Below, in pieces: positions 7,130 to 57,835 of a stretch of 64,000 nt of DNA. How positions within the stretch are numbered: position 1 is the stretch's first letter; every line of letters begins with the position of its first letter. The stretch is from an uncultured Alphaproteobacteria bacterium (GTDB lineage: Bacteria > Pseudomonadota > Alphaproteobacteria > Rhizobiales > Xanthobacteraceae): the NCBI GenBank assembly GCA_963836765.1, contig CAWILG010000033.1:186494-250493 (forward strand), given 5' to 3'. The notes beneath the pieces are model-generated. The model was not told the origin of the DNA. It did not search any database and saw only the letters and a program-made list of their open reading frames with translations. The position numbers were made by a program, and so were the translations under genes.

Positions 7130-7153
7130 GGTGGGCCGCGCCACCATCTATGC

Positions 7154-7236
7154 CGTCATTGCGAGCAAAGCGAAGCAATCCATCGTGCAACAAAGCAAGT
7201 CTGGATTGCTTCGGCGCTTCGCTCCTCGCAATGACG
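7154..7236. repeat. CGTC-tagged palindromic repeat (long form), copy 1 of 4
   Basis: Terminal IR cgtcattgcgag / ctcgcaatgacg with inner gaagcaatcc / ggattgcttc. Confidence 0.9.
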
Positions 7237-7275
7237 TCGTTCTAATTTCAAATGTCCGGCGAACTCTCGGAGCCC

Positions 7276-8097
7276 TCAATTCGCCGACGCCACCGGCGTG
7301 GCGGCTGAGGCGTCCGGATCGAAGCCGAACACGCCGACCAGATATTTGAAATATTCGGGCTGCTTTTCTTTCAGGTTGGCCCGCGTGTTGGGCTCATGGA
7401 CCGCGTCCTTGCCGGCCAGGAACAGGCTCGCGGTGACCGCGAAGAACTCCTTGTGGTTCTTCATCAGGTAGGCATCCTTGTCATACAGCCCCTTGGCCTT
7501 GGCCTGGCCGTAGAAGTCCTTGATGCCCCTGTTCTCGAAACCGTTCGGCATCAGCTTGGCGTGGTAGACGTGGAGGAACTCGTGCAGCATGACCGGGTCA
7601 TCCGCATACTTCATCATCGCCGGACGGAACATGACGACACCGCGCCCGGAATCGACGGCGAGGTCGACCAGATCCGGATTGCTCCATTGCGCCTTGTCGT
7701 GATCCCAGGTCGTCACCCCGCGCGTATGACGGTCCCTGGTGGGTACCGACAAGCCGTAGCATGCCGCGGCGGCGGCTTCGTCCAGGCAGGCCATCTCGCT
7801 CGCGACGATCGGCACCGAGCGGAAATACTGCAGCACTTTTGGGCTCAGGCCAACGCTCTCGACGACGTCGAGCTGACGCCGCAGCATGTCGGCGAGGGCT
7901 GTGACATCCTTGCGTTCCGAATTTTCGGAAAGGTCGAAAACGTAACCGTGATAGGTTTCGTAGCCCGATGCCGGCGCCGCGGCGGCTGGCCGGTCATTGG
8001 CCTGGGGATCAACCTGAATGACCCGGGCACCCGCGCTTGCGAAATCGGGGGCCAACGAAAAAATGACGACGATTGAACTCAGCAGCACCCTGCGCAT
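7276..8097 (-). CDS. Secreted zincin-like metallopeptidase (HExxH)
   Basis: Signal-like N-terminus; MLHEFLHVYH and downstream NHKEFFAVTAS. Confidence 0.65.
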   Translation of the reverse strand: MRRVLLSSIVVIFSLAPDFASAGARVIQVDPQANDRPAAAAPASGYETYHGYVFDLSENSERKDVTALADMLRRQLDVVESVGLSPKVLQYFRSVPIVASEMACLDEAAAAACYGLSVPTRDRHTRGVTTWDHDKAQWSNPDLVDLAVDSGRGVVMFRPAMMKYADDPVMLHEFLHVYHAKLMPNGFENRGIKDFYGQAKAKGLYDKDAYLMKNHKEFFAVTASLFLAGKDAVHEPNTRANLKEKQPEYFKYLVGVFGFDPDASAATPVASAN

Positions 8098-8374
8098 GAT
8101 GTAACCCCTACCGCGATCCATTGGCTTCGGCGACCGGTCGGCCATGACGACGGGCCGACGCCGGTTGTCGGGCCGCGATCGTACCAACGCGCCGTTGCGG
8201 CACTGTTAATTTCCGTTCCCGCGCAACTTCGCCGGCGTTATCGCCACATTAACCACGCCACGCTGGACAGGACGGCGCGGCAGGGTGACAATCCCGGCAA
8301 GGCAACCGGCATTGCAGGGTCTGCACATGAGAAGCGCCAAGAAAACTGACGTGAGAACCGCCGTGGGAACCGCC

Positions 8375-11212: not shown

Positions 11213-11296
11213 ATGCCACTCGTCAGCAAACTGAGCGTTGTAGCCGCGTACGTCGTGTTCGCCTTCGTCGGCGCCATCGTGCTCGGCGTGTTCTAG
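11213..11296 (+). CDS. 27-aa single-helix membrane peptide
   Basis: MPLVSKLSVVAAYVVFAFVGAIVLGVF; RBS agggag; promoter upstream and terminator downstream. Confidence 0.55.
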   Translation: MPLVSKLSVVAAYVVFAFVGAIVLGVF

Positions 11297-11321
11297 GCTT
11301 TCCGTCCAGAACTGGGCGTTG

Positions 11322-11352
11322 GCGCCCGGTGGTCCAGCCACCGGGCGTTTTT
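11322..11352 (+). terminator. Intrinsic terminator
   Basis: cgcccggtgg / ccaccgggcg stem followed by TTTTT. Confidence 0.7.
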
Positions 11353-11583
11353 CATGGGCATCAAGCCCCCTTCGTGAGCGACCCCATTTCCTGCCAATTT
11401 TTGTCCGCGATTCAGGCGCCATGCAGATGCGCCCGCCAATGGACCAATTCGGACTTCGCTATGCGTTTGACCAGGGTGCAAGTTGCTACCAAGCTGAGCG
11501 CTTCCAGGTTGAGGCGGCCTGCGCCGCAATCGTCTGTTTGCAGGTTCGAGTCATGCCGGCCCCCCGAAGCATTGGTGAGAGAC

Positions 11584-12363
11584 ATGGCCAAATTCTCCGA
11601 ACTCATGGATGGCATGCGACGGGAGGGCGACGCTTGGACCGCGGCCGTTAGCGAAGATTGGCTACAAGGTCGCACGCTGTTCGGCGGGCTATCAGGAGCG
11701 CTGTGTCTTGAAGCGGTGAAACGGGAGTTCAGCGATCTACCGCCGCTACGCTCGGCCCAATTCTCGCTTACCGGACCAGCCGCAGGGCCAATTACCATTC
11801 GGCCCACGCTACTTCGCCGGGGTAAATCAACGGCGTTTATCTGCGCCGACCTTTCCGGCGACTGCGGTCTAGCGATGCGGGCAACGTTCTGCTTCACCAA
11901 TCCGCGAGCTTCCGCCTACAACCACGAAGCCATTCCGGCACCCGTGGTCAAACGACCCGACGAATGCCCCACCTTCGCAAGACAAGTGAATTTCGCGCAG
12001 CATTTCGATAACCGTCTAGCGCACGGCAATTCGCCATTCAGTGAGGCGGACGACCCCACGATGGTACTGTGGATGCGCCTGCGCGAGGATGTTCGCAGCA
12101 CGTCGCAGACTGCACTCGTTGCGCTTGCCGATTCTCCGCCGCCTGCTGCGCAAGTCCTGTTCAAGCAACAAACGCCGATCAGCACGATGACATGGGCATT
12201 CGATTTGCTCTCTGATGATATTGAGACCGAAGGCGGCTGGTGGTTGATCCGTGCATCGGCTGAGAGCGTGCAAAATGGCTATTCCAGCCAGGCGATGACG
12301 GTTTGGAATTCCACTGGCAAGGCGGTGCTCGTGGGCCGTCAGAACATCGCGATCTTCGGCTGA
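11584..12363 (+). CDS. Acyl-CoA thioesterase (TesB-like double hotdog)
   Basis: WLQGRTLFGGLS, LRRGKS, LVALADSPPPA, GYSSQAMTVW; atypical codon usage. Confidence 0.88.
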   Translation: MAKFSELMDGMRREGDAWTAAVSEDWLQGRTLFGGLSGALCLEAVKREFSDLPPLRSAQFSLTGPAAGPITIRPTLLRRGKSTAFICADLSGDCGLAMRATFCFTNPRASAYNHEAIPAPVVKRPDECPTFARQVNFAQHFDNRLAHGNSPFSEADDPTMVLWMRLREDVRSTSQTALVALADSPPPAAQVLFKQQTPISTMTWAFDLLSDDIETEGGWWLIRASAESVQNGYSSQAMTVWNSTGKAVLVGRQNIAIFG

Positions 12364-12432
12364 ACCCCAAAAGACTGACTATCAACCTATAAGATTGCAC
12401 CGCGTTCTACTGACAAGGTGATCACGGTGCAT

Positions 12433-12553
12433 GAGTCCGGTTACGGCACATCGCGTCATTTCGCTGCATGCGGAATTTGGTCGCCACCGGAGCACGGCGA
12501 ACATTGGTCAAGCCGGCACCGATCAAGCTCGATTTACGAGTACGCGCCCCTAG
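12433..12553 (+). repeat. Imperfect palindromic element A, a direct-repeat partner of 17253-17365
   Basis: gagtcc-N6-ggcacatcgcgtcatttcgctgc (23-mer identical in D); ends in gagtacgcgccc(c)tag. Confidence 0.8.
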
Positions 12554-12894
12554 TCGAAATTCGAACAGCTCGATCCGGTGATGCCGCCAACCACAAAATC
12601 CCTGCACATCAATCCGGGATTATCGGGATCGGGATAGCGATCGTCGCGCTTCACCCGCTCGCGGATCGTGTGGCTGAAGCGCCAGCCATGGCTGCGCATG
12701 CAGTTCTTGTAGGCCCGCGATGTCGGCACGCCGTTCTGCGGTGCGCCGAATTGCGCATCGCATGCCGCCGTGTCGGCGTGCAGCGCATCGTCGCCGCGCG
12801 GCTGCTTCAGCGCGTTGTTGTAGATGTCGTTGTCGGCATGGGCGTTGATCGCGCTGCCCAGCAACAATATGGCAATCAGGCTTAGACGTTTCAT
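12550..12894 (-). CDS. Small secreted hypothetical protein
   Basis: Signal peptide [20 protein letters not shown]; four Cys; native codon usage. Confidence 0.75.
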
Positions 12895-13114
12895 GGTCGG
12901 TCTCCATCTCAGGCGAAAAGCGTTACAGCTATCGGTCGCATCAGATGGAGGACGCGGTTCGAACCCAATCGATTACAAATTGGAAACGTCGGGCCGGCAT
13001 GCGCTGGTCAACGGACCAATGCCGTGGACAGCTTCGCCGAGTCATGACTGCGTCCATGGTGACGCCATCAACCGGAAACGGTCGGTGGCGGAGCAGCAAA
13101 TCCTCTGAATTTAT

Positions 13115-13193
13115 TTCCGCTTTCGCCCTGCATAACGGACATTGCCAGTCTGCCTGCTGGCTCGACCCGGTCGCGAATGACCCGTTTCGGACA
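13115..13193. repeat. Imperfect palindromic element B
   Basis: ttccgctttcgccctgcataacggac hairpin, ccag/ctgg hairpin, ggtc/gacc hairpin, ends cggaca. Confidence 0.6.
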
Positions 13194-13269
13194 ATGAGAA
13201 GAACATCTTGCTGTCTTTGCGACTGCCGCAGGATAGGATCGCCGTTGGTCGAACCTCGCGGAGGAATCG

Positions 13270-14820
13270 ATGCAGGACGTGAGAAGAGTTCCCGTTCTCG
13301 TTGTCGGAGGTGGTCCGATCGGCCTTGCTCTTGCAGTCGCCCTTGAGCGTTTCCGCGTCGATTGCCTGATCGTCGAGCGTTCGCCGACGACAACCGATCA
13401 CCCGAAATCCCGCGGCTGCCAGGTTCGCACGATGGAGATATTTCGCCAGTGGGGAGTAGAGGAGGCCATTCGTTCACGCGGCTTGCCCGACGATACGGAC
13501 ATTTGGCTGATGATGGAGCGTCTGGTCGGCCCGGAGTATGGCCGCACCAAGCCTGAACCGCGCAAGGGTGAAAGTCCGACTTGGAAGAGCCAGGCGCCCC
13601 AGGATGTGGTCGAGGAAAAACTATTGAAGGCCGTTTGCGTCGGCAAGCACGCGACCGTTCGCTATTCTACCGAGATGGTGGATTTCGAGGATCTTGGCGA
13701 CGGCGTGAGCGTGCGGGTTCGCGATGTTCGCTCGGGTGAAATCGAGATATGGCAGGCCGAATGGCTTGTCGCTGCCGACGGGGCGGGGAGCGGGACCCGA
13801 AGGGCTGCAGGAATCGAGATGGTCGGGCCGCCCTGCCTCGGGGTCATGCTGAACGAATACATTCGTCTCGATTTGTCGAACCTACCAATCGCAAGACAAG
13901 CGGCGATTATCCGGGTGGTCCCACGCGATCCCGTTCGACCGGTCATCTCCCTGCTAAACACAAACGCTGCCGATCGCTGGCTTATGGTGATGCGCATCGG
14001 CGCAACCGAAGACGAAAGAACGCCTGAACAACGTGAGATGAATATCGACGAATTGCTCCGCCACTATGTCGGTCGAGATGACCTGGTTGCGACAAGCATC
14101 AACAGTTCAACCTGGAGAATGAGCAAGCAGGTGGCAGCGAGCTTCCGTAAGGGTCGTGTGCTGTTGGCCGGCGATGCCGCCCACCGTTTTCCGCCAACTG
14201 GCGGCTTCGGGCTCAATACGGGTGTACAGGATGCGCACAATCTCGCTTGGAAGCTGGCTTATGTATTGAACGGCCGGGCGACGGAAAAATTGATCGACAC
14301 TTACGACGAGGAGCGTCGACCAATCGCGCAGGCAAATGCCGATTTTAGTCTTGGCAATTCGCTGCGGATACCGCACGTCGACCGGGCGATGCGCAGCAAC
14401 AACCGGGAGCGCATCGACTTCTGGATCGAAGATCTAGATAACCACCTGCACGGCGTGGGCCAATCACTCGGATTCATTTACGAATCAAGTGCCGTGATCG
14501 CTGACGGTTCAACGCGCCCGTTGCACATTGCTCGCCACTATGTCCCGGTCGATCGCCCAGGCAGCCGCTTTCCACACCTTTGGCTTGACGCCGATCACAC
14601 GAAATCGACCCTCGATTGGTTCGACAAGGATTTTGTGCTCGCGGTGGGGGATGAAGCTGACGAATGGATTGCGGCGGCAGGCGAGGTTTCTCGCCAATTG
14701 AATATGCCTCTGATTGCAAGGCGTCTACCGCGGAATGCACGTGACGCCGGATGCTTGATTGGCCGCAAGGGCGCGGCATTAGTGCGTCCCGATGGCCAGG
14801 TCGCCTGGCGTGTCGCATAA
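13270..14820 (+). CDS. FAD-dependent monooxygenase (PheA/TfdB-like, group A flavoprotein hydroxylase)
   Basis: VLVVGGGPIG, LVAADGAGS, GRVLLAGDAAHRFPPTGGFGLNTGVQDAHNLAWKL, C-terminal LVRPDGQVAWR. Confidence 0.93.
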   Translation: MQDVRRVPVLVVGGGPIGLALAVALERFRVDCLIVERSPTTTDHPKSRGCQVRTMEIFRQWGVEEAIRSRGLPDDTDIWLMMERLVGPEYGRTKPEPRKGESPTWKSQAPQDVVEEKLLKAVCVGKHATVRYSTEMVDFEDLGDGVSVRVRDVRSGEIEIWQAEWLVAADGAGSGTRRAAGIEMVGPPCLGVMLNEYIRLDLSNLPIARQAAIIRVVPRDPVRPVISLLNTNAADRWLMVMRIGATEDERTPEQREMNIDELLRHYVGRDDLVATSINSSTWRMSKQVAASFRKGRVLLAGDAAHRFPPTGGFGLNTGVQDAHNLAWKLAYVLNGRATEKLIDTYDEERRPIAQANADFSLGNSLRIPHVDRAMRSNNRERIDFWIEDLDNHLHGVGQSLGFIYESSAVIADGSTRPLHIARHYVPVDRPGSRFPHLWLDADHTKSTLDWFDKDFVLAVGDEADEWIAAAGEVSRQLNMPLIARRLPRNARDAGCLIGRKGAALVRPDGQVAWRVA

Positions 14821-14989
14821 CCTGATGCGACTAGCCAGCTGCCGAGTGCTGTCAAGAAGGTGGTTTCGGCCCCCGGCTGATGTTACCGCTCAAGCATCAG
14901 TAAAGTTCGAGATGGTCTAACCTGAAGACTGCAGGACCGTGGACCTCATCTGCCGCCAAGCTCGCCCGCGCCGACATCCAATGGCCCGC

Positions 14990-15745
14990 TCCACTTCCGG
15001 TTTTCTGAGATTAAATTGGGCGCCCGAGCAGATAGCCGGCTGGCTTAAAAGAGCCCATCTTGAAGGCGAGTGTTATCAGGTGTCCCACGAGACGATCTAT
15101 CGCAGTCTATTTGTTCAAGCCCGCGGGGTGCTTAAGAAAGAGCTGCTTTGCCATCTTCGATCGAAGCGCACGATCCGGCGATCAAAACAGGCGGGTCTCA
15201 ATGGCGATGGCCGGGGGCAAATCAAGGATCCCGTCTCGATCCGTCAGCGACCAGCAACGGTTGAAGATCGGGCGGTGCCTGGCCATTGGGAAGGCGATCT
15301 CCTGTCTGGGTCGAAGAACAGCTATATCGCGACCTTGGTCGAACGTCATACCCGCTACGTGATGCTGGCAAAGGTGGCCAACAAGGATACCCAGTCGGTC
15401 GTATCCGCGCTCATCAAGCAGGCAAGAAAGCTACCAAGCGAACTCTATAAGTCGCTGACCTGGGACCGTGGCAAGGAACTTGCGGATCATCGACAATTTA
15501 CGTTGGCGACCAACATCGACGTTTATTTTTGCGATCCGCAAAGCCCGTGGCAGCGCGGTTCGAATGAAAACACCAATGGTCTCCTCAGACAGTACTTTCC
15601 CAGGGGCACCGACCTGTCGGTACACTCGCAAGCTTATCTGAACAAAGTGGCTCGTCAGCTCAACGAACGCCCCCGTGAGACCTTGCAATTTGAGACCCCA
15701 GCGGAGAGATTTAACGCCTGTGTTGCGTCGACCGGTTGAGCCGGC
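14990..15745 (+). mobile_element. IS30-family transposase remnant, 5' truncated
   Basis: WAPEQIAGWL, SHETIYR, PGHWEGDL, SLTWDRGKE, PWQRGSNENTNGLLRQYFP; N-terminal HTH region absent. Confidence 0.9.
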
Positions 15746-15856
15746 TGCACAACTCGGACATACCGCCGTGGTCGCTCTATGTCTGTTGTTGGGGGGCAGA
15801 GCGGAAAACATATGCTCACATTGAGCCTTTCAACTTTCGCCACCCCTATCGGACAT
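15745..15856. repeat. Imperfect palindromic element C, abutting the IS30 right end
   Basis: cggacat...atgtctg, atgtctgttgttggggggcagagcggaa, gctc/gagc hairpin, ends cggacat; resembles reverse complement of element B. Confidence 0.6.
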
Positions 15857-15941
15857 TTGACCGAGATTCGAAAAAGGCGCATTGTGATGGGCGTTACTTA
15901 GGTCGCCTGGAAATCATCGATTTGGAATCTGGGAGCGCCAA

Positions 15942-17210
15942 GTGCATCGCAGAGCATTCTTGGCTGCCGGCGGCCGCACAGCCGTGGCGACGCTCGCGGC
16001 CGCGACCGGCGGTCCGAACCTGCTGTTTGCAAGAGATCGGACGCCATCGTCGGACGCGCTTGAGCAGCGGATCGCAGACGTAATCGCGGCTTTCGATGCC
16101 CAAGGAAATCACCGTACGGGGACGCCGGTTGATAATGCATCAGCAGAATGGCTGGCGAGACAGGTACAGCAGTTGGGCGCCGAGCCTGAGCTCGAACACT
16201 TCGCGCTCAACCGGGTTGATCCGCAATCGTCTTACTTGCGCATCGCGGATCGGCGCATCGACGGAGTGCCTCTATTCGACGCTACCTTCACCGACGGGGA
16301 AGGAGTGCGCGGTAGACTCGGACCGCTCGGTAGCGATGCTGAAATCGGGTTGGCAGAAACCGTGCCGGTTACGCTCGGGGATCCTCTCATAGGGCAGGCC
16401 GCACTCGCGGTAGTGCGGCGGAGCCGCCACAAGGCGGTCGTCCTGATCACCCGCGGCAGTCAACCCGGACTCTTCTTGCTCAACGCCGGATCGTTCTCGA
16501 AGCCTATCGGACCGCCCACCGTACAAGTCTCGAGCATCGAAAGCGAGTGGCTGAAGGAGCAAGCCCAGCAGCGCGCCGAGGCGACGCTCGTTGCTCATGT
16601 AAGCCGGACGGCCGCGCAAGCCTTCAACGTCGCGGTCAAAATCGCAGGCAGCAACCCGGCGCTGGCACCGCTCGTCCTCATGGCACCGCGCAGTGGCTGG
16701 TGGCAATGCGCGAGCGAGCAGGGGAGCCGTCTTGCGTGTTGGCTGGAAGCGATTCGCGTCCTAGCGACTGGCAGGCCGGCGCGCGACTCTTTCTTCGTTG
16801 CCCTGAGCGGTCATGAGCTCGGATTTCTAGGCATTGATGCGTATCTCAAACGCCGAGGAGACCTGGTGAAGCGCGCGCGCATGTGGATTTTCTTTGGCTC
16901 TGATATTGGTGCACCGGGACAGCCGAATCTGATCCACGCATCCGACGACGAGCTCGAACAGTGGGCCGTCCTAGCAATGGAGAAGGAGGGGCTGACCGTG
17001 AACGCGAAAGAGCGGCACGGCTCCGCGGCTCGCGGAGAGGCCCGTGCCGTCCAGCAAGGTGGCGGGCGGTTCGTGACGCTCGTGTGTGGCAGTGACCTCT
17101 ATCACAACGTAACCGACCGCTGGCCGGAAGCGCTCGATGTTGCGACACTAGCTCGCTATGCCAGCGCGCTTGCGAACGGCGCCTTGGAGGTTGCAAAGCA
17201 ACAAAGCTGA
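15942..17210 (+). CDS. Tat-exported hypothetical protein, PA + M28 peptidase-like fold
   Basis: RRAFL Tat motif; FNVAVKIAG, FFVALSGHELGFLG, LYHNVTDRWP; atypical codon usage. Confidence 0.6.
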   Translation: MHRRAFLAAGGRTAVATLAAATGGPNLLFARDRTPSSDALEQRIADVIAAFDAQGNHRTGTPVDNASAEWLARQVQQLGAEPELEHFALNRVDPQSSYLRIADRRIDGVPLFDATFTDGEGVRGRLGPLGSDAEIGLAETVPVTLGDPLIGQAALAVVRRSRHKAVVLITRGSQPGLFLLNAGSFSKPIGPPTVQVSSIESEWLKEQAQQRAEATLVAHVSRTAAQAFNVAVKIAGSNPALAPLVLMAPRSGWWQCASEQGSRLACWLEAIRVLATGRPARDSFFVALSGHELGFLGIDAYLKRRGDLVKRARMWIFFGSDIGAPGQPNLIHASDDELEQWAVLAMEKEGLTVNAKERHGSAARGEARAVQQGGGRFVTLVCGSDLYHNVTDRWPEALDVATLARYASALANGALEVAKQQS

Positions 17211-17252
17211 CGGGGCCGAGGAGCGCTCCAACCCCATTGAGGCATGGGAACA

Positions 17253-17365
17253 GAGTCCACTGTTGGCACATCGCGTCATTTCGCTGCGTCGCGAAATTTG
17301 GTCGCTATCGAGGCATAGCGGACTCCGGCAAGCCGCCCGCCCGGCACATCTATGCGTTCACGCCC
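17253..17365 (+). repeat. Imperfect palindromic element D, a direct-repeat partner of 12433-12553
   Basis: Outer gagtcc / ggactc, inner tttcgc / gcgaaa and gctat / atagc stems; 23-mer identical to A. Confidence 0.8.
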
Positions 17366-17374
17366 GGAATTGCG

Positions 17375-57577: not shown

Positions 57578-57835
57578 TCAGTAGGCCGCGAGCGCGAAAT
57601 CGTGAGAGGATTTGTCGTTCGCATGGCTATGCGGACAGCCGGAGCAGCAGGCCTTGGCGCAGGGACCGAGCGCCTCGTCGATTATGGTCTTGATGGTACG
57701 CGCGCACCGGCCGCATTCGGCGCTGCAGCCGAGGCAACCATAAATCTGCTTCGCATTGCGCGGCAGTTCGCCGGCGGCGACCACAGCATTGCGGACATCG
57801 TGGTCGCTGATGACGTTACAGGAACAAACAATCAT
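57578..57835 (-). CDS. bfd: Bacterioferritin-associated ferredoxin
   Basis: MIVCSCN...CGRCA; adjacent to bfr. Confidence 0.92.
   Translation of the reverse strand: MIVCSCNVISDHDVRNAVVAAGELPRNAKQIYGCLGCSAECGRCARTIKTIIDEALGPCAKACCSGCPHSHANDKSSHDFALAAY

Follow-up and report, generated by a model that had tools for sequence, protein, structure and literature searches.

A low-G+C accessory-gene patch in a Bradyrhizobium-like chromosome probably consists of two immobile insertions of a cargo-carrying IS427-group transposon

The question raised by this locus is whether three accessory genes, which lie close together in a low-G+C patch of a Bradyrhizobium-like chromosome and are interspersed with four supposed palindromes (A–D), make up an integron-like array. 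An earlier note had proposed such an array, with the palindromes acting as recombination sites for a recombinase encoded in trans. We followed up this proposal in the window, i.e. the whole 64,000-nt stretch of DNA under analysis. The G+C content of the region is 0.555–0.60, vs. the higher values of 0.62–0.68 in its flanks. ORF and domain calls agree with the three co-oriented genes described in the note (coding for a thioesterase, a FAD monooxygenase and a 422-aa protein), and so does the search for sigma-70-like promoters (0 found in the region vs. 1.9 expected) with the description of these genes as promoter-poor. For the third gene, which had been called Tat M28-like, the ORF and the Tat-like N-terminus stand, but the likeness to M28 peptidases is weak: the 422-aa protein has no match in Pfam or NCBIfam, its closest solved structure is the aminopeptidase YwaD (E 0.015), and the name PF04389 or M28 is carried by some of its homologues. 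The features of the region are the following (L102–L106 are five related loci, described below):

11352–12549, no strand: insertion 1, missing in related genomes (empty-site alignments)
11361–11435, minus strand: fragment from the central part of a transposase gene (IS5 family, IS427 group), on the left margin of insertion 1 (blastn, translation)
11584–12363, plus strand: passenger gene 1, acyl-CoA thioesterase-like, 259 aa (Pfam 4HBT_3, E 6e-14; 4HBT_3C, E 3e-23)
12433–12549, plus strand: element A, a diverged copy of a ~112-nt right-end module with an IS427-type right inverted repeat (nhmmer family profile, empty sites)
12550–12894, minus strand: conserved core gene of a 114-aa secreted protein, outside both insertions (L102–L106, ~90% DNA identity)
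12990–17371, no strand: insertion 2, missing in related genomes (empty-site alignments)
13050–13183, plus strand: hairpin B, the terminal 134 nt of a 925-bp IS (IS5 family, IS427 group; nhmmer, blastn)
13270–14820, plus strand: passenger gene 2, FAD-dependent aromatic-ring monooxygenase, 516 aa (Pfam FAD_binding_3, E 7e-83; Rng_hyd_C)
15005–15744, plus strand: IS30-family element, 5'-truncated (NF033563 transpos_IS30, E 2e-76)
15745–15856, no strand: hairpin C, intergenic DNA native to insertion 2, straight after the IS30 end
15942–17210, plus strand: passenger gene 3, coding for a 422-aa protein (Tat-like N-terminus, weak likeness to M28 peptidases)
17253–17366, plus strand: element D, a right-end module with an IS427-type right inverted repeat, the right terminus of insertion 2 (nhmmer, empty sites)

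The 114-aa gene, overlooked in the earlier note, divides the supposed array into two. In L102–L106 it sits between the genes for a DUF2147 protein and an extensin-like protein, all three being immediately adjacent (i.e. both sites are empty), while the two extra segments are present in the window and in L101. Insertion 1 is flanked by the terminator of a tiny peptide gene on the left and by the stop codon of the 114-aa gene on the right; the homology ends at 11351 (L102–L104) or 11362 (L105/L106) and restarts at 12549 or 12547. Insertion 2 is flanked by the start of the 114-aa gene on the left and by the stop of the DUF2147 gene on the right; here the homology ends at 12989 (L102–L104) or 13004 (L105) and restarts at 17372 or 17374. 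In all five loci the right junction of each insertion falls within a few bases of the 3' end of A or D, which bears out the suggestion that these two elements delimit strain-variable DNA with precise junctions. The final bases of A adjoin the 114-aa gene at its stop codon; the TA at this end of the insertion is the same TA as that of the empty site. The terminus of D has diverged (CACGCCCGGA in place of CACGGCCTAG) and is without an adjoining TA, and the left ends of the window insertions are eroded.

The profile scan revealed that A and D are homologous to each other and that B and C lie outside their family, contrary to the view of the four palindromes as one family. The nhmmer matches extend over 12435–12549 for A (E 1e-17, with the whole profile length covered) and over 17255–17365 for D (E 1e-30). 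The two are direct repeats with ~78% identity and a 23-nt exact core, for which 0 matches are expected by chance. D shows 71–85% identity to plasmid copies from Bradyrhizobium, Rhizobium, Ensifer, Sinorhizobium and Aminobacter; its identity with copies from other genomes (84.7%) exceeds that with A, which argues for two independent events. The ~112-nt element is widespread in Alphaproteobacteria, with more than 100 sharply delimited copies from many genera among the fetched loci. At present it is unannotated or overlain by spurious small ORF calls, and a profile of this tag would aid annotators. The hairpins themselves did not withstand the comparison with dinucleotide shuffles, as none of A, B, C and D folds better than these (z -0.66, -1.12, -1.03 and +0.42, respectively), and the stems of the GTCCG..CGGAC type said to be common to them are not enriched in the window (2 pairs seen vs. 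6.7 expected).

B and the left edge of insertion 1 turned out to be remnants of one and the same kind of IS, also overlooked in the note, so that both insertions have traces of the 925-bp IS in cis, on their left margins. B is the IS end beside the start codon of the transposase and finishes with ...GGTCGCGAATGACCC; it matches positions 477–609 of a 611-position profile made from 16 IS copies (nhmmer, E 1.4e-23), with a concordant blastn match to L040:3697–3776. The remnant at 11361–11435 is short (75 nt) and was identified by blastn against L040:3255–3322 (77% over 70 nt, E 6e-5 for the whole window; tblastn on its own gave E 0.044); its translation, RAHLHGA*IADKNWQEMG, can be aligned with RVHQHGACVADNNHQDMG. 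Between the monooxygenase gene and the 422-aa gene there is another unnoticed element, the IS30-family fragment (ORF 14939–15739, right inverted repeat at ~15720–15744). Its site is empty in L001 and occupied by a different, complete IS30-family IS in L101; this element is a secondary arrival within insertion 2. C, which follows it, is continuous with the DNA 3' of the monooxygenase gene in L001 and is a member of none of the repeat families identified here (no better than E 26 with the A/D profile).

In other genomes the A/D element is linked to the complete 925-bp IS, which codes for an IS5-family DDE transposase (NF033580, E 1e-90; domains DUF4096 and DDE_Tnp_1). The transposase gene, adjoined by a conserved ~130-nt module, is intact inside the units in L040, L010 and L080, while the window has remnants only. 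In 52 of the 56 IS-element pairs the IS is found on the upstream side of the element and in one orientation, and the cargo between them is varied and 0.55–6.2 kb long. Of the 46 element copies with 5 kb or more of sequence on their upstream side, 22 have the IS there, and 1 of 47 has it downstream; in PLSDB, each of the six loci that contain close relatives of the IS also has the element, 1–5.7 kb downstream. A whole unit, comprising the IS, MFS, ApbA and Ada/AraC genes and the element, occurs in two contexts: L040:2852–6919 and L010:606–4674 are 98.8% identical over 4069 bp, with different flanks and with TA bounding both. The right 1.8–3.4 kb of this unit is common to five further genomes and ends exactly at the 3' end of the element. 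In general, the units are 1.6–7 kb long and contain 1–7 unrelated ORFs in either orientation, with passengers as diverse as transporters, kinases, cyclases, oxidoreductases and hydrolases. The 925-bp IS has also a sharp end of its own (...GACCC), followed soon after, in three loci, by a second end of the GGCCTAG type; the distal A/D element may have been the right end from the start or may be a surrogate.

The identity of this right end was revealed by the comparison with IS427 from Agrobacterium tumefaciens, the prototype of the IS427 group of the IS5 family. The A/D consensus finishes with 20 nt, TTTATGGGTTCACGGCCTAG, that match the IS427 right inverted repeat (the window copies are more diverged there), and the IS427 left end, CTAGGCCGTAGACTCAT, is related to TAGGGCGTGGACTCAT of the units described here. 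When the left end is compared over its first 16 nt with the A/D terminus, taken as reverse complement, 13 of 16 positions agree; this is the highest score along the whole element and is reached by 2 of 2000 shuffles. The transposases belong to the same family (66% DNA identity, DUF4096 and DDE_Tnp_1, NF033580). The layout is also shared: in the Agrobacterium copy (L107) the transposase gene, located on the opposite strand, is followed by a passenger ORF (SMI1/KNR4) and then by TTTATGGGTTCACGGCCTAG with a TA flank, and TA is present at both ends of this copy as well as of the L040 and L010 units. However, IS427 has a length of ~1.27 kb and one fixed small ORF, whereas the cargo here varies per copy, and the units possess an additional conserved ~90 nt inside the right end and the ~130-nt module beside the transposase gene. 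Ordinary IS427-group elements are cargo-free and 832–865 bp long, and in Paracoccus two-base duplications and 13–21-bp inverted repeats are the rule for them (PMC3281130). Because of their size and their content of unrelated ORFs, in comparison with the compact IS of ~0.83–1.3 kb, we file the units as a cargo-carrying variant and not as a plain IS.

Given what was observed, i.e. homologous parts, the junctions, a linkage in fixed orientation and a whole unit in two contexts, the region most probably represents two independent, now immobile insertions of an IS427-group transposon carrying passenger genes. The IS remnants, the right-end modules and the empty sites together point to two fossil transposons, each made of transposase, passenger genes and right-end module; we call them fossils because both the left inverted repeat and the transposase have been lost, and only the diverged right ends (A and D) are kept. 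In other genomes the intact form starts with the left inverted repeat (TAGGGCGTGGACTCAT...), followed by the gene of a ~260-aa DDE transposase on the strand opposite to the element, the ~130-nt conserved module ending with ...GAATGACCC, 0.55–6.2 kb of unrelated passenger genes, and the ~112-nt right-end module, whose final 16 nt, ATGGGTTCACGGCCTA, are the inverted repeat of the left end. We infer the use of the A/D end by the transposase (it would pair the left end with this distal end and mobilize the whole segment), the duplication of TA, and the way in which the cargo comes to vary. The predicted target is TA, often within a stop codon, e.g. in CTAG or CTAA. Of insertion 1, the window still has the 75-nt remnant of the transposase gene, the thioesterase gene and element A; of insertion 2, it has B (the 134-nt IS end on the transposase side), the gene of the monooxygenase, the later IS30-family element, the M28-like gene and element D.

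Could A and D be instead solo repeats, similar to MITEs or REPs, which spread alone and favor the 3' ends of genes, both gene insertions being unrelated horizontal transfers and their coincidence with the junctions secondary? About half of the A/D copies are without a recognizable IS within 5 kb upstream, and so some of them may be solo or otherwise mobile; moreover, at most loci the flanks of the element are unrelated and it stands as a discrete unit, and its left end is targeted by an IS110-family element, as is the case with REPs and transposon ends. We nevertheless consider this explanation rather improbable, since IS remnants on the left are combined with the element on the right in both window insertions, the bias of side and orientation is strong (52/56), and units of 3.3–4.1 kb finish exactly at the element. 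At its left end the element agrees with the left end of the IS in 9 of 16 positions, which equals the shuffle mean; it has a single good terminal inverted repeat and hence is without the two ends that a MITE needs. A MITE proper was rejected on the same grounds, as only the 3' end matches the IS repeat and no TA precedes the left end. MITEs and mobile insertion cassettes (MICs) resemble the window copies in being non-autonomous IS derivatives that need IS ends and have no working transposase, but they carry two terminal inverted repeats, while the window insertions have lost the left one. REP/BIME palindromes with their RAYT (a Y1 HUH transposase) are 20–40 nt long and clustered; the A/D unit is ~112 nt long and single.

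A structured RNA or 3'-UTR element with a host function (terminator, stabilizer or small RNA) would agree with the 70–85% identity kept across several families, with the frequent position directly 3' of a co-oriented gene, and with two short stems whose pairing is slightly above that of shuffles. Yet this conservation is explained by the linkage to the IS, and the covariation is weak and biased by the search pattern. RNAalifold predicted zero pairs and thus no consensus structure for 71 A/D copies, the Rfam covariance models gave no match for A–D or eight homologous copies even at E up to 1–5, and no terminator-like site exists at A or D, which makes a role of this kind very unlikely. Still more improbable, indeed hardly credible, is the reading of A–D as attC-like single-strand sites of a new integron-like capture system with a tyrosine or HUH recombinase in trans. 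To its credit are the diverse, strain-variable cargo closed in each insertion by the element, as with genes followed by attC at precise junctions, and the inverted repeats S1, S2 and S3 inside the element (paired in 67%, 83% and 93% of cells, respectively). The note was also right that no integrase is in view (Phage_integrase has no match among the genes ~10 kb on either side, the sole integrase fold being the rve domain of the IS30 fragment) and that the RYYYAAC/GTTRRRY cores are absent on reading A–D. However, it had named beforehand identity with a known MITE or IS end as a refuting result, and such identity was found in the IS427 right inverted repeat; with it, and with a DDE transposase linked in cis and its remnants present in the window, the idea of a recombinase acting in trans fails. 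Integrons differ also by IntI and attI, which have no counterpart here, by folded sites, and by single co-oriented cassettes vs. the cargo of 1–7 genes in either orientation. An integron cassette, i.e. a repeat travelling with a single gene, was rejected also because homologues of the 422-aa gene (72–94% identity) at five other loci (L108–L112) are without the element, and the cargo often comprises several genes in both orientations.

A parallel to the IS427-group units is offered by transposable modules (TMos) and by the ISEcp1/ISPme1-type elements (IS1380 family), in which an IS moves variable-length neighboring DNA via a distal right end (PMC3281130). In both cases one IS copy mobilizes adjacent DNA of variable length using a distal sequence, but the transposase of TMos is from a different family, and its surrogate ends are weak, varied look-alikes, in contrast to the distal end described here, a single conserved element of 112 nt whose inverted repeat is near-canonical. 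It is conceivable, if unlikely, that the units possess a dedicated cargo slot, located between the transposase-side module (...GAATGACCC, then the AGCGGACAT motif) and the right-end module, with the inverted motif ATGTCCGC at its start, and that genes are exchanged at both sharp boundaries by a specific process. If so, the units would be a transposon-borne gene-capture platform of soil Alphaproteobacteria, as opposed to products of accidental one-ended mobilizations.

Thus, the low-G+C accessory-gene patch in this Bradyrhizobium-like chromosome is accounted for without a new recombination system, and there is still no evidence of integron-like arrays in this group. IS427-type units, recognizable by the 112-nt tag at their right end, have moved varied accessory genes among Bradyrhizobium, Rhizobium, Mesorhizobium, Ensifer and other Alphaproteobacteria, and a profile of this tag provides a cheap marker of recently acquired genes in such genomes.

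The region that the earlier note had read as an attC-like cassette array, served by a recombinase in trans, is an element of a known kind, in a variant that carries cargo; the note is borne out in part, right that its elements delimit strain-variable DNA but wrong about the mechanism. The region holds two segments missing from related genomes (insertions 1 and 2) and includes the three co-oriented genes that the note had named:

11352/11363 to 12546/12548, insertion 1, bounds from the alignment with empty sites
11361-11435, minus strand, short transposase remnant (77% over 70 nt, E 6e-5)
11584-12363, co-oriented with the other two cargo genes, acyl-CoA thioesterase-like gene
12550-12894, minus strand, 114-aa gene in the middle of the supposed array
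12990/13005 to 17371/17373, insertion 2, bounds from the alignment with empty sites
13050-13183, B, the terminal 134 nt of a 925-bp IS on the transposase start-codon side, ending ...GGTCGCGAATGACCC (E 1.4e-23)
13270-14820, co-oriented with the other two cargo genes, FAD aromatic-ring monooxygenase gene
14939-15739, ORF of an IS30-family transposase fragment with an rve domain (NF033563, E 2e-76)
15942-17210, co-oriented with the other two cargo genes, 422-aa M28-like gene

The IS30 fragment, which sits between the monooxygenase and 422-aa genes, and the minus-strand 114-aa gene inside the supposed array had both been overlooked. The four supposed palindromes (A, 12433-12553; B, 13115-13193; C, 15745-15856; D, 17253-17365) show no significant folding, as none of them beats its own dinucleotide shuffles when folded as single-stranded DNA (z -0.66, -1.12, -1.03 and +0.42 for A, B, C and D). 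Neither GCGGACAT and CGGACAW/CGGACAT-type motifs nor GTCCG..CGGAC pairs, the stem type described in the note, are enriched in the window. A and D are homologous to each other: these direct repeats have about 78% identity across some 90 nt and a common 23-nt exact core for which the chance expectation is zero matches. The profile built from this family (hereafter the A/D element) picked out just two sequences in the window, D at 17255-17365 (E 1e-30) and A at 12435-12549 (E 1e-17); weak hits at 57736-57797 lie within an apparent coding region and were taken as chance. B and C do not match the profile, and therefore the four palindromes are not the single family they had been taken for.

The G+C content is 0.555-0.60 at 11 to 16 kb versus 0.62-0.68 on both sides, and the search for sigma-70-like promoters, with none found against 1.9 expected, agrees with the description of the genes as promoter-poor. 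The 422-aa protein matched no Pfam or NCBIfam model; the label "M28-like" is plausible but weak, since its top match among solved structures is the M28 aminopeptidase YwaD (E 0.015) and PF04389 or the name M28 is attached to some homologues. Its closest homologue in a complete genome (80% identity; L108:5445-8272, a locus of Bradyrhizobium sp. Ash2021) has as neighbours an ABC_sub_bind gene and a DDE transposase of another kind (DUF772 + DDE_Tnp_1), and the contexts of this gene elsewhere are also rich in mobile elements; neither the A/D element nor the 925-bp IS was found with its homologues in other loci. The exact-protein look-up for the extensin-like gene product gave no match. Elsewhere in the window, a TPP riboswitch was identified on the plus strand at 40324-40457 (RF00059, 71.8 bits).

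Six related loci were reached through orthologues of the flanking DUF2147 protein. One of them (L101), with about 99% DNA identity to the window (98% for the protein), has the same layout, and in the other five (L102-L104, L105 from Bradyrhizobium sp. Ash2021, and L106), whose flanks show about 90% DNA identity, the DUF2147, 114-aa and extensin-like genes are directly adjacent. Alignment to these five revealed the two separate extra segments. On its right, insertion 1 finishes with the last base of A, where the TA of ...CCCCTAG coincides with the TA in the empty-site stop codon of the 114-aa gene (plus-strand CTA); insertion 2 finishes on the right within a few bases of the end of D. Thus, the predicted precise junctions hold at the ends of A and D. 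D is 84.7% identical to copies in other genomes, closer than to A, which argues for insertions 1 and 2 having been two independent events. Insertion 1 starts directly 3' of a segment (11213-11350) kept in all related loci, in which a tiny hydrophobic ORF of 27 codons precedes a strong hairpin resembling an intrinsic terminator. A left-end motif common to both insertions, ATGCGC..CAAYGGACCAAT, was attributed to chance (alignment score 24, where shuffles average 18 and reach at most 29; the offsets differ).

Each IS remnant occupies the left edge of its own insertion, in the expected orientation, and the translation of the one at 11361-11435, RAHLHGA*IADKNWQEMG, aligns with RVHQHGACVADNNHQDMG. 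Insertions 1 and 2 contain neither a left inverted repeat nor a working transposase, and no other copies of the IS were found in the window. Within insertion 2, the site TTCCGGTTTTGG/CTGCACAACTCGGACAT is empty in the comparison locus L001 (1840-1860), carries a 5'-truncated IS30-family element in the window (15005-15744) and, in L101 (reverse complement 7143-8345), another IS30-family element, complete at 1202 bp and oppositely oriented (73% identity); it looks like an IS30 insertion hot spot. C begins directly after the IS30 right repeat, which stops at 15744, and is native intergenic DNA of insertion 2; it was rejected as an IS30 end or as a member of the A/D family.

D matches intergenic plasmid DNA of Bradyrhizobium, Rhizobium, Ensifer, Sinorhizobium and Aminobacter (71-85% identity over about 105 nt). 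When species-representative genomes were scanned for a two-block pattern, 91 loci were identified, nearly all from Alphaproteobacteria, including Bradyrhizobium, Rhizobium, Mesorhizobium, Xanthobacteraceae, Beijerinckiaceae, Reyranella, Stellaceae and many MAGs. The copies are sharp-ended, starting near (ATG/GAG)GTCCGC and finishing ...GATTTATGGGTTCACGGCCTAG; no description of the element was found in the full-text literature searched. Could the element act as an RNA? Of three stems drawn by hand, one is paired in 67% of cells, one in 83% and one in 93%, with weak covariation in a biased test, one arm being fixed by the search pattern. No Rfam family matched even at relaxed thresholds, RNAalifold predicted zero pairs from 71 copies, and there is no terminator-like site at A or D; an RNA structure was accordingly rejected.

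IS110-family insertions (352-aa transposase) were found at the left end of several A/D copies in one MAG, just after GTCCGCT (L021:2584-4090, L072:1190-2699, L047 and L017); this IS110-family element appears to target the A/D element, in the way that relatives target REPs, attC sites or transposon ends. The sequence just 5' of A (12405-12432, GACAAGGTGATCACGGTGCATGAGTCCGG) resembles the ...GACGAGGTGATCGAATAA 3' ends, presumably of ABC_sub_bind genes, that precede the element in three other loci (L022, L027 and L053), and may be a remnant of an earlier passenger gene.

Comparison of loci from different MAGs linked the element to the 925-bp IS, of the IS5 family, IS427 group. Seven loci have 1.8-4.1 kb in common at about 98% identity, all of it upstream of the A/D element; the common stretch stops exactly at the element's 3' end, with unrelated DNA beyond. 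The longest pair (L040:2852-6919 and L010:606-4674, 4069 bp in common) presents the whole unit in two contexts, with unlike flanks and TA at the bounds of both copies: the 925-bp IS with its 264-aa transposase (DUF4096 + DDE_Tnp_1; NF033580, E 1e-90), MFS, ketopantoate-reductase-like and Ada/AraC genes, and the A/D element. The linkage is oriented: in 52/56 pairings the IS or its remnants lie upstream of the element and share its orientation (distances 0.55-6.2 kb). Among the 46 copies with 5 kb or more of sequence upstream, 22 have the IS there; it lies downstream of 1/47. Close relatives of the IS (at least 83% identity) occur at six plasmid loci, and at each of these the element is present 1-5.7 kb downstream. 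Intact units include copies on Ensifer adhaerens pCTYH.Ch1_2 and Bradyrhizobium sp. 4 p4_1. Between IS and element lie one to seven ORFs in both orientations, encoding an MBL-fold protein, solute-binding protein, SDR, cyclase-TPR protein, PAS-HWE kinase, membrane transporter or DUF1254. The IS end by the transposase start carries a hairpin-like CTTCCGCTTTCGGCGGCATAGCGGACATGG in about 15 loci (L040:3700-3776 and equivalents); after its ...GACCC a AGCGGACAT-like motif is usual, and in three loci (L014, L073 and L077) a second end of the GGCCTAG type comes shortly afterwards.

The A/D element ends in an IS427-type inverted repeat: its terminus (TAGGCCGTGAACCCAT), reverse-complemented, agrees at 13/16 positions with the 16 nt that open the IS left end (TAGGGCGTGGACTCAT), the best match anywhere in the element and one reached by 2/2000 shuffles. 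An IS427 copy annotated by PGAP in Agrobacterium (L107:2503-3774, plasmid pAtCFBP5877b) has the same layout, opening with TA/GGCCGTAGACTCAT... and closing with ...GTTTATGGGTTCACGGCC/TA. Its terminal 20 nt are identical to the A/D consensus, and between the transposase gene and the right inverted repeat it has a SMI1/KNR4-family passenger ORF; thus, the passenger position exists already in the group prototype. IS427-group elements surveyed in Paracoccus are 832-865 bp long, with 13-21-bp repeats and 2-bp duplications (PMC3281130).

The transposase would pair the left end with a distal A/D end and insert the intervening DNA at TA, and the window copies would be fossils of such events. Two readings may account for the variation of the cargo. 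The 925-bp IS could be complete, with the A/D element acting as surrogate for a distal end in the manner of "transposable modules", where adjacent DNA is moved by a single IS (PMC3281130). Or perhaps the A/D element has been the right end from the outset, with genes taken up in a slot that the ...GACCC module and the element delimit? We lean towards this latter possibility, because close relatives of the IS always occur with the element and IS427 itself has a passenger ORF. A paired hairpin bracketing the cargo (AGCGGACAT after the IS end versus ATGTCCGC at the element start) was rejected, as complementarity within units (6.35) is not above that between units (6.45). For the window itself the finding is of modest importance; in soil Alphaproteobacteria it matters somewhat more, as a marker of gene traffic at the family level.
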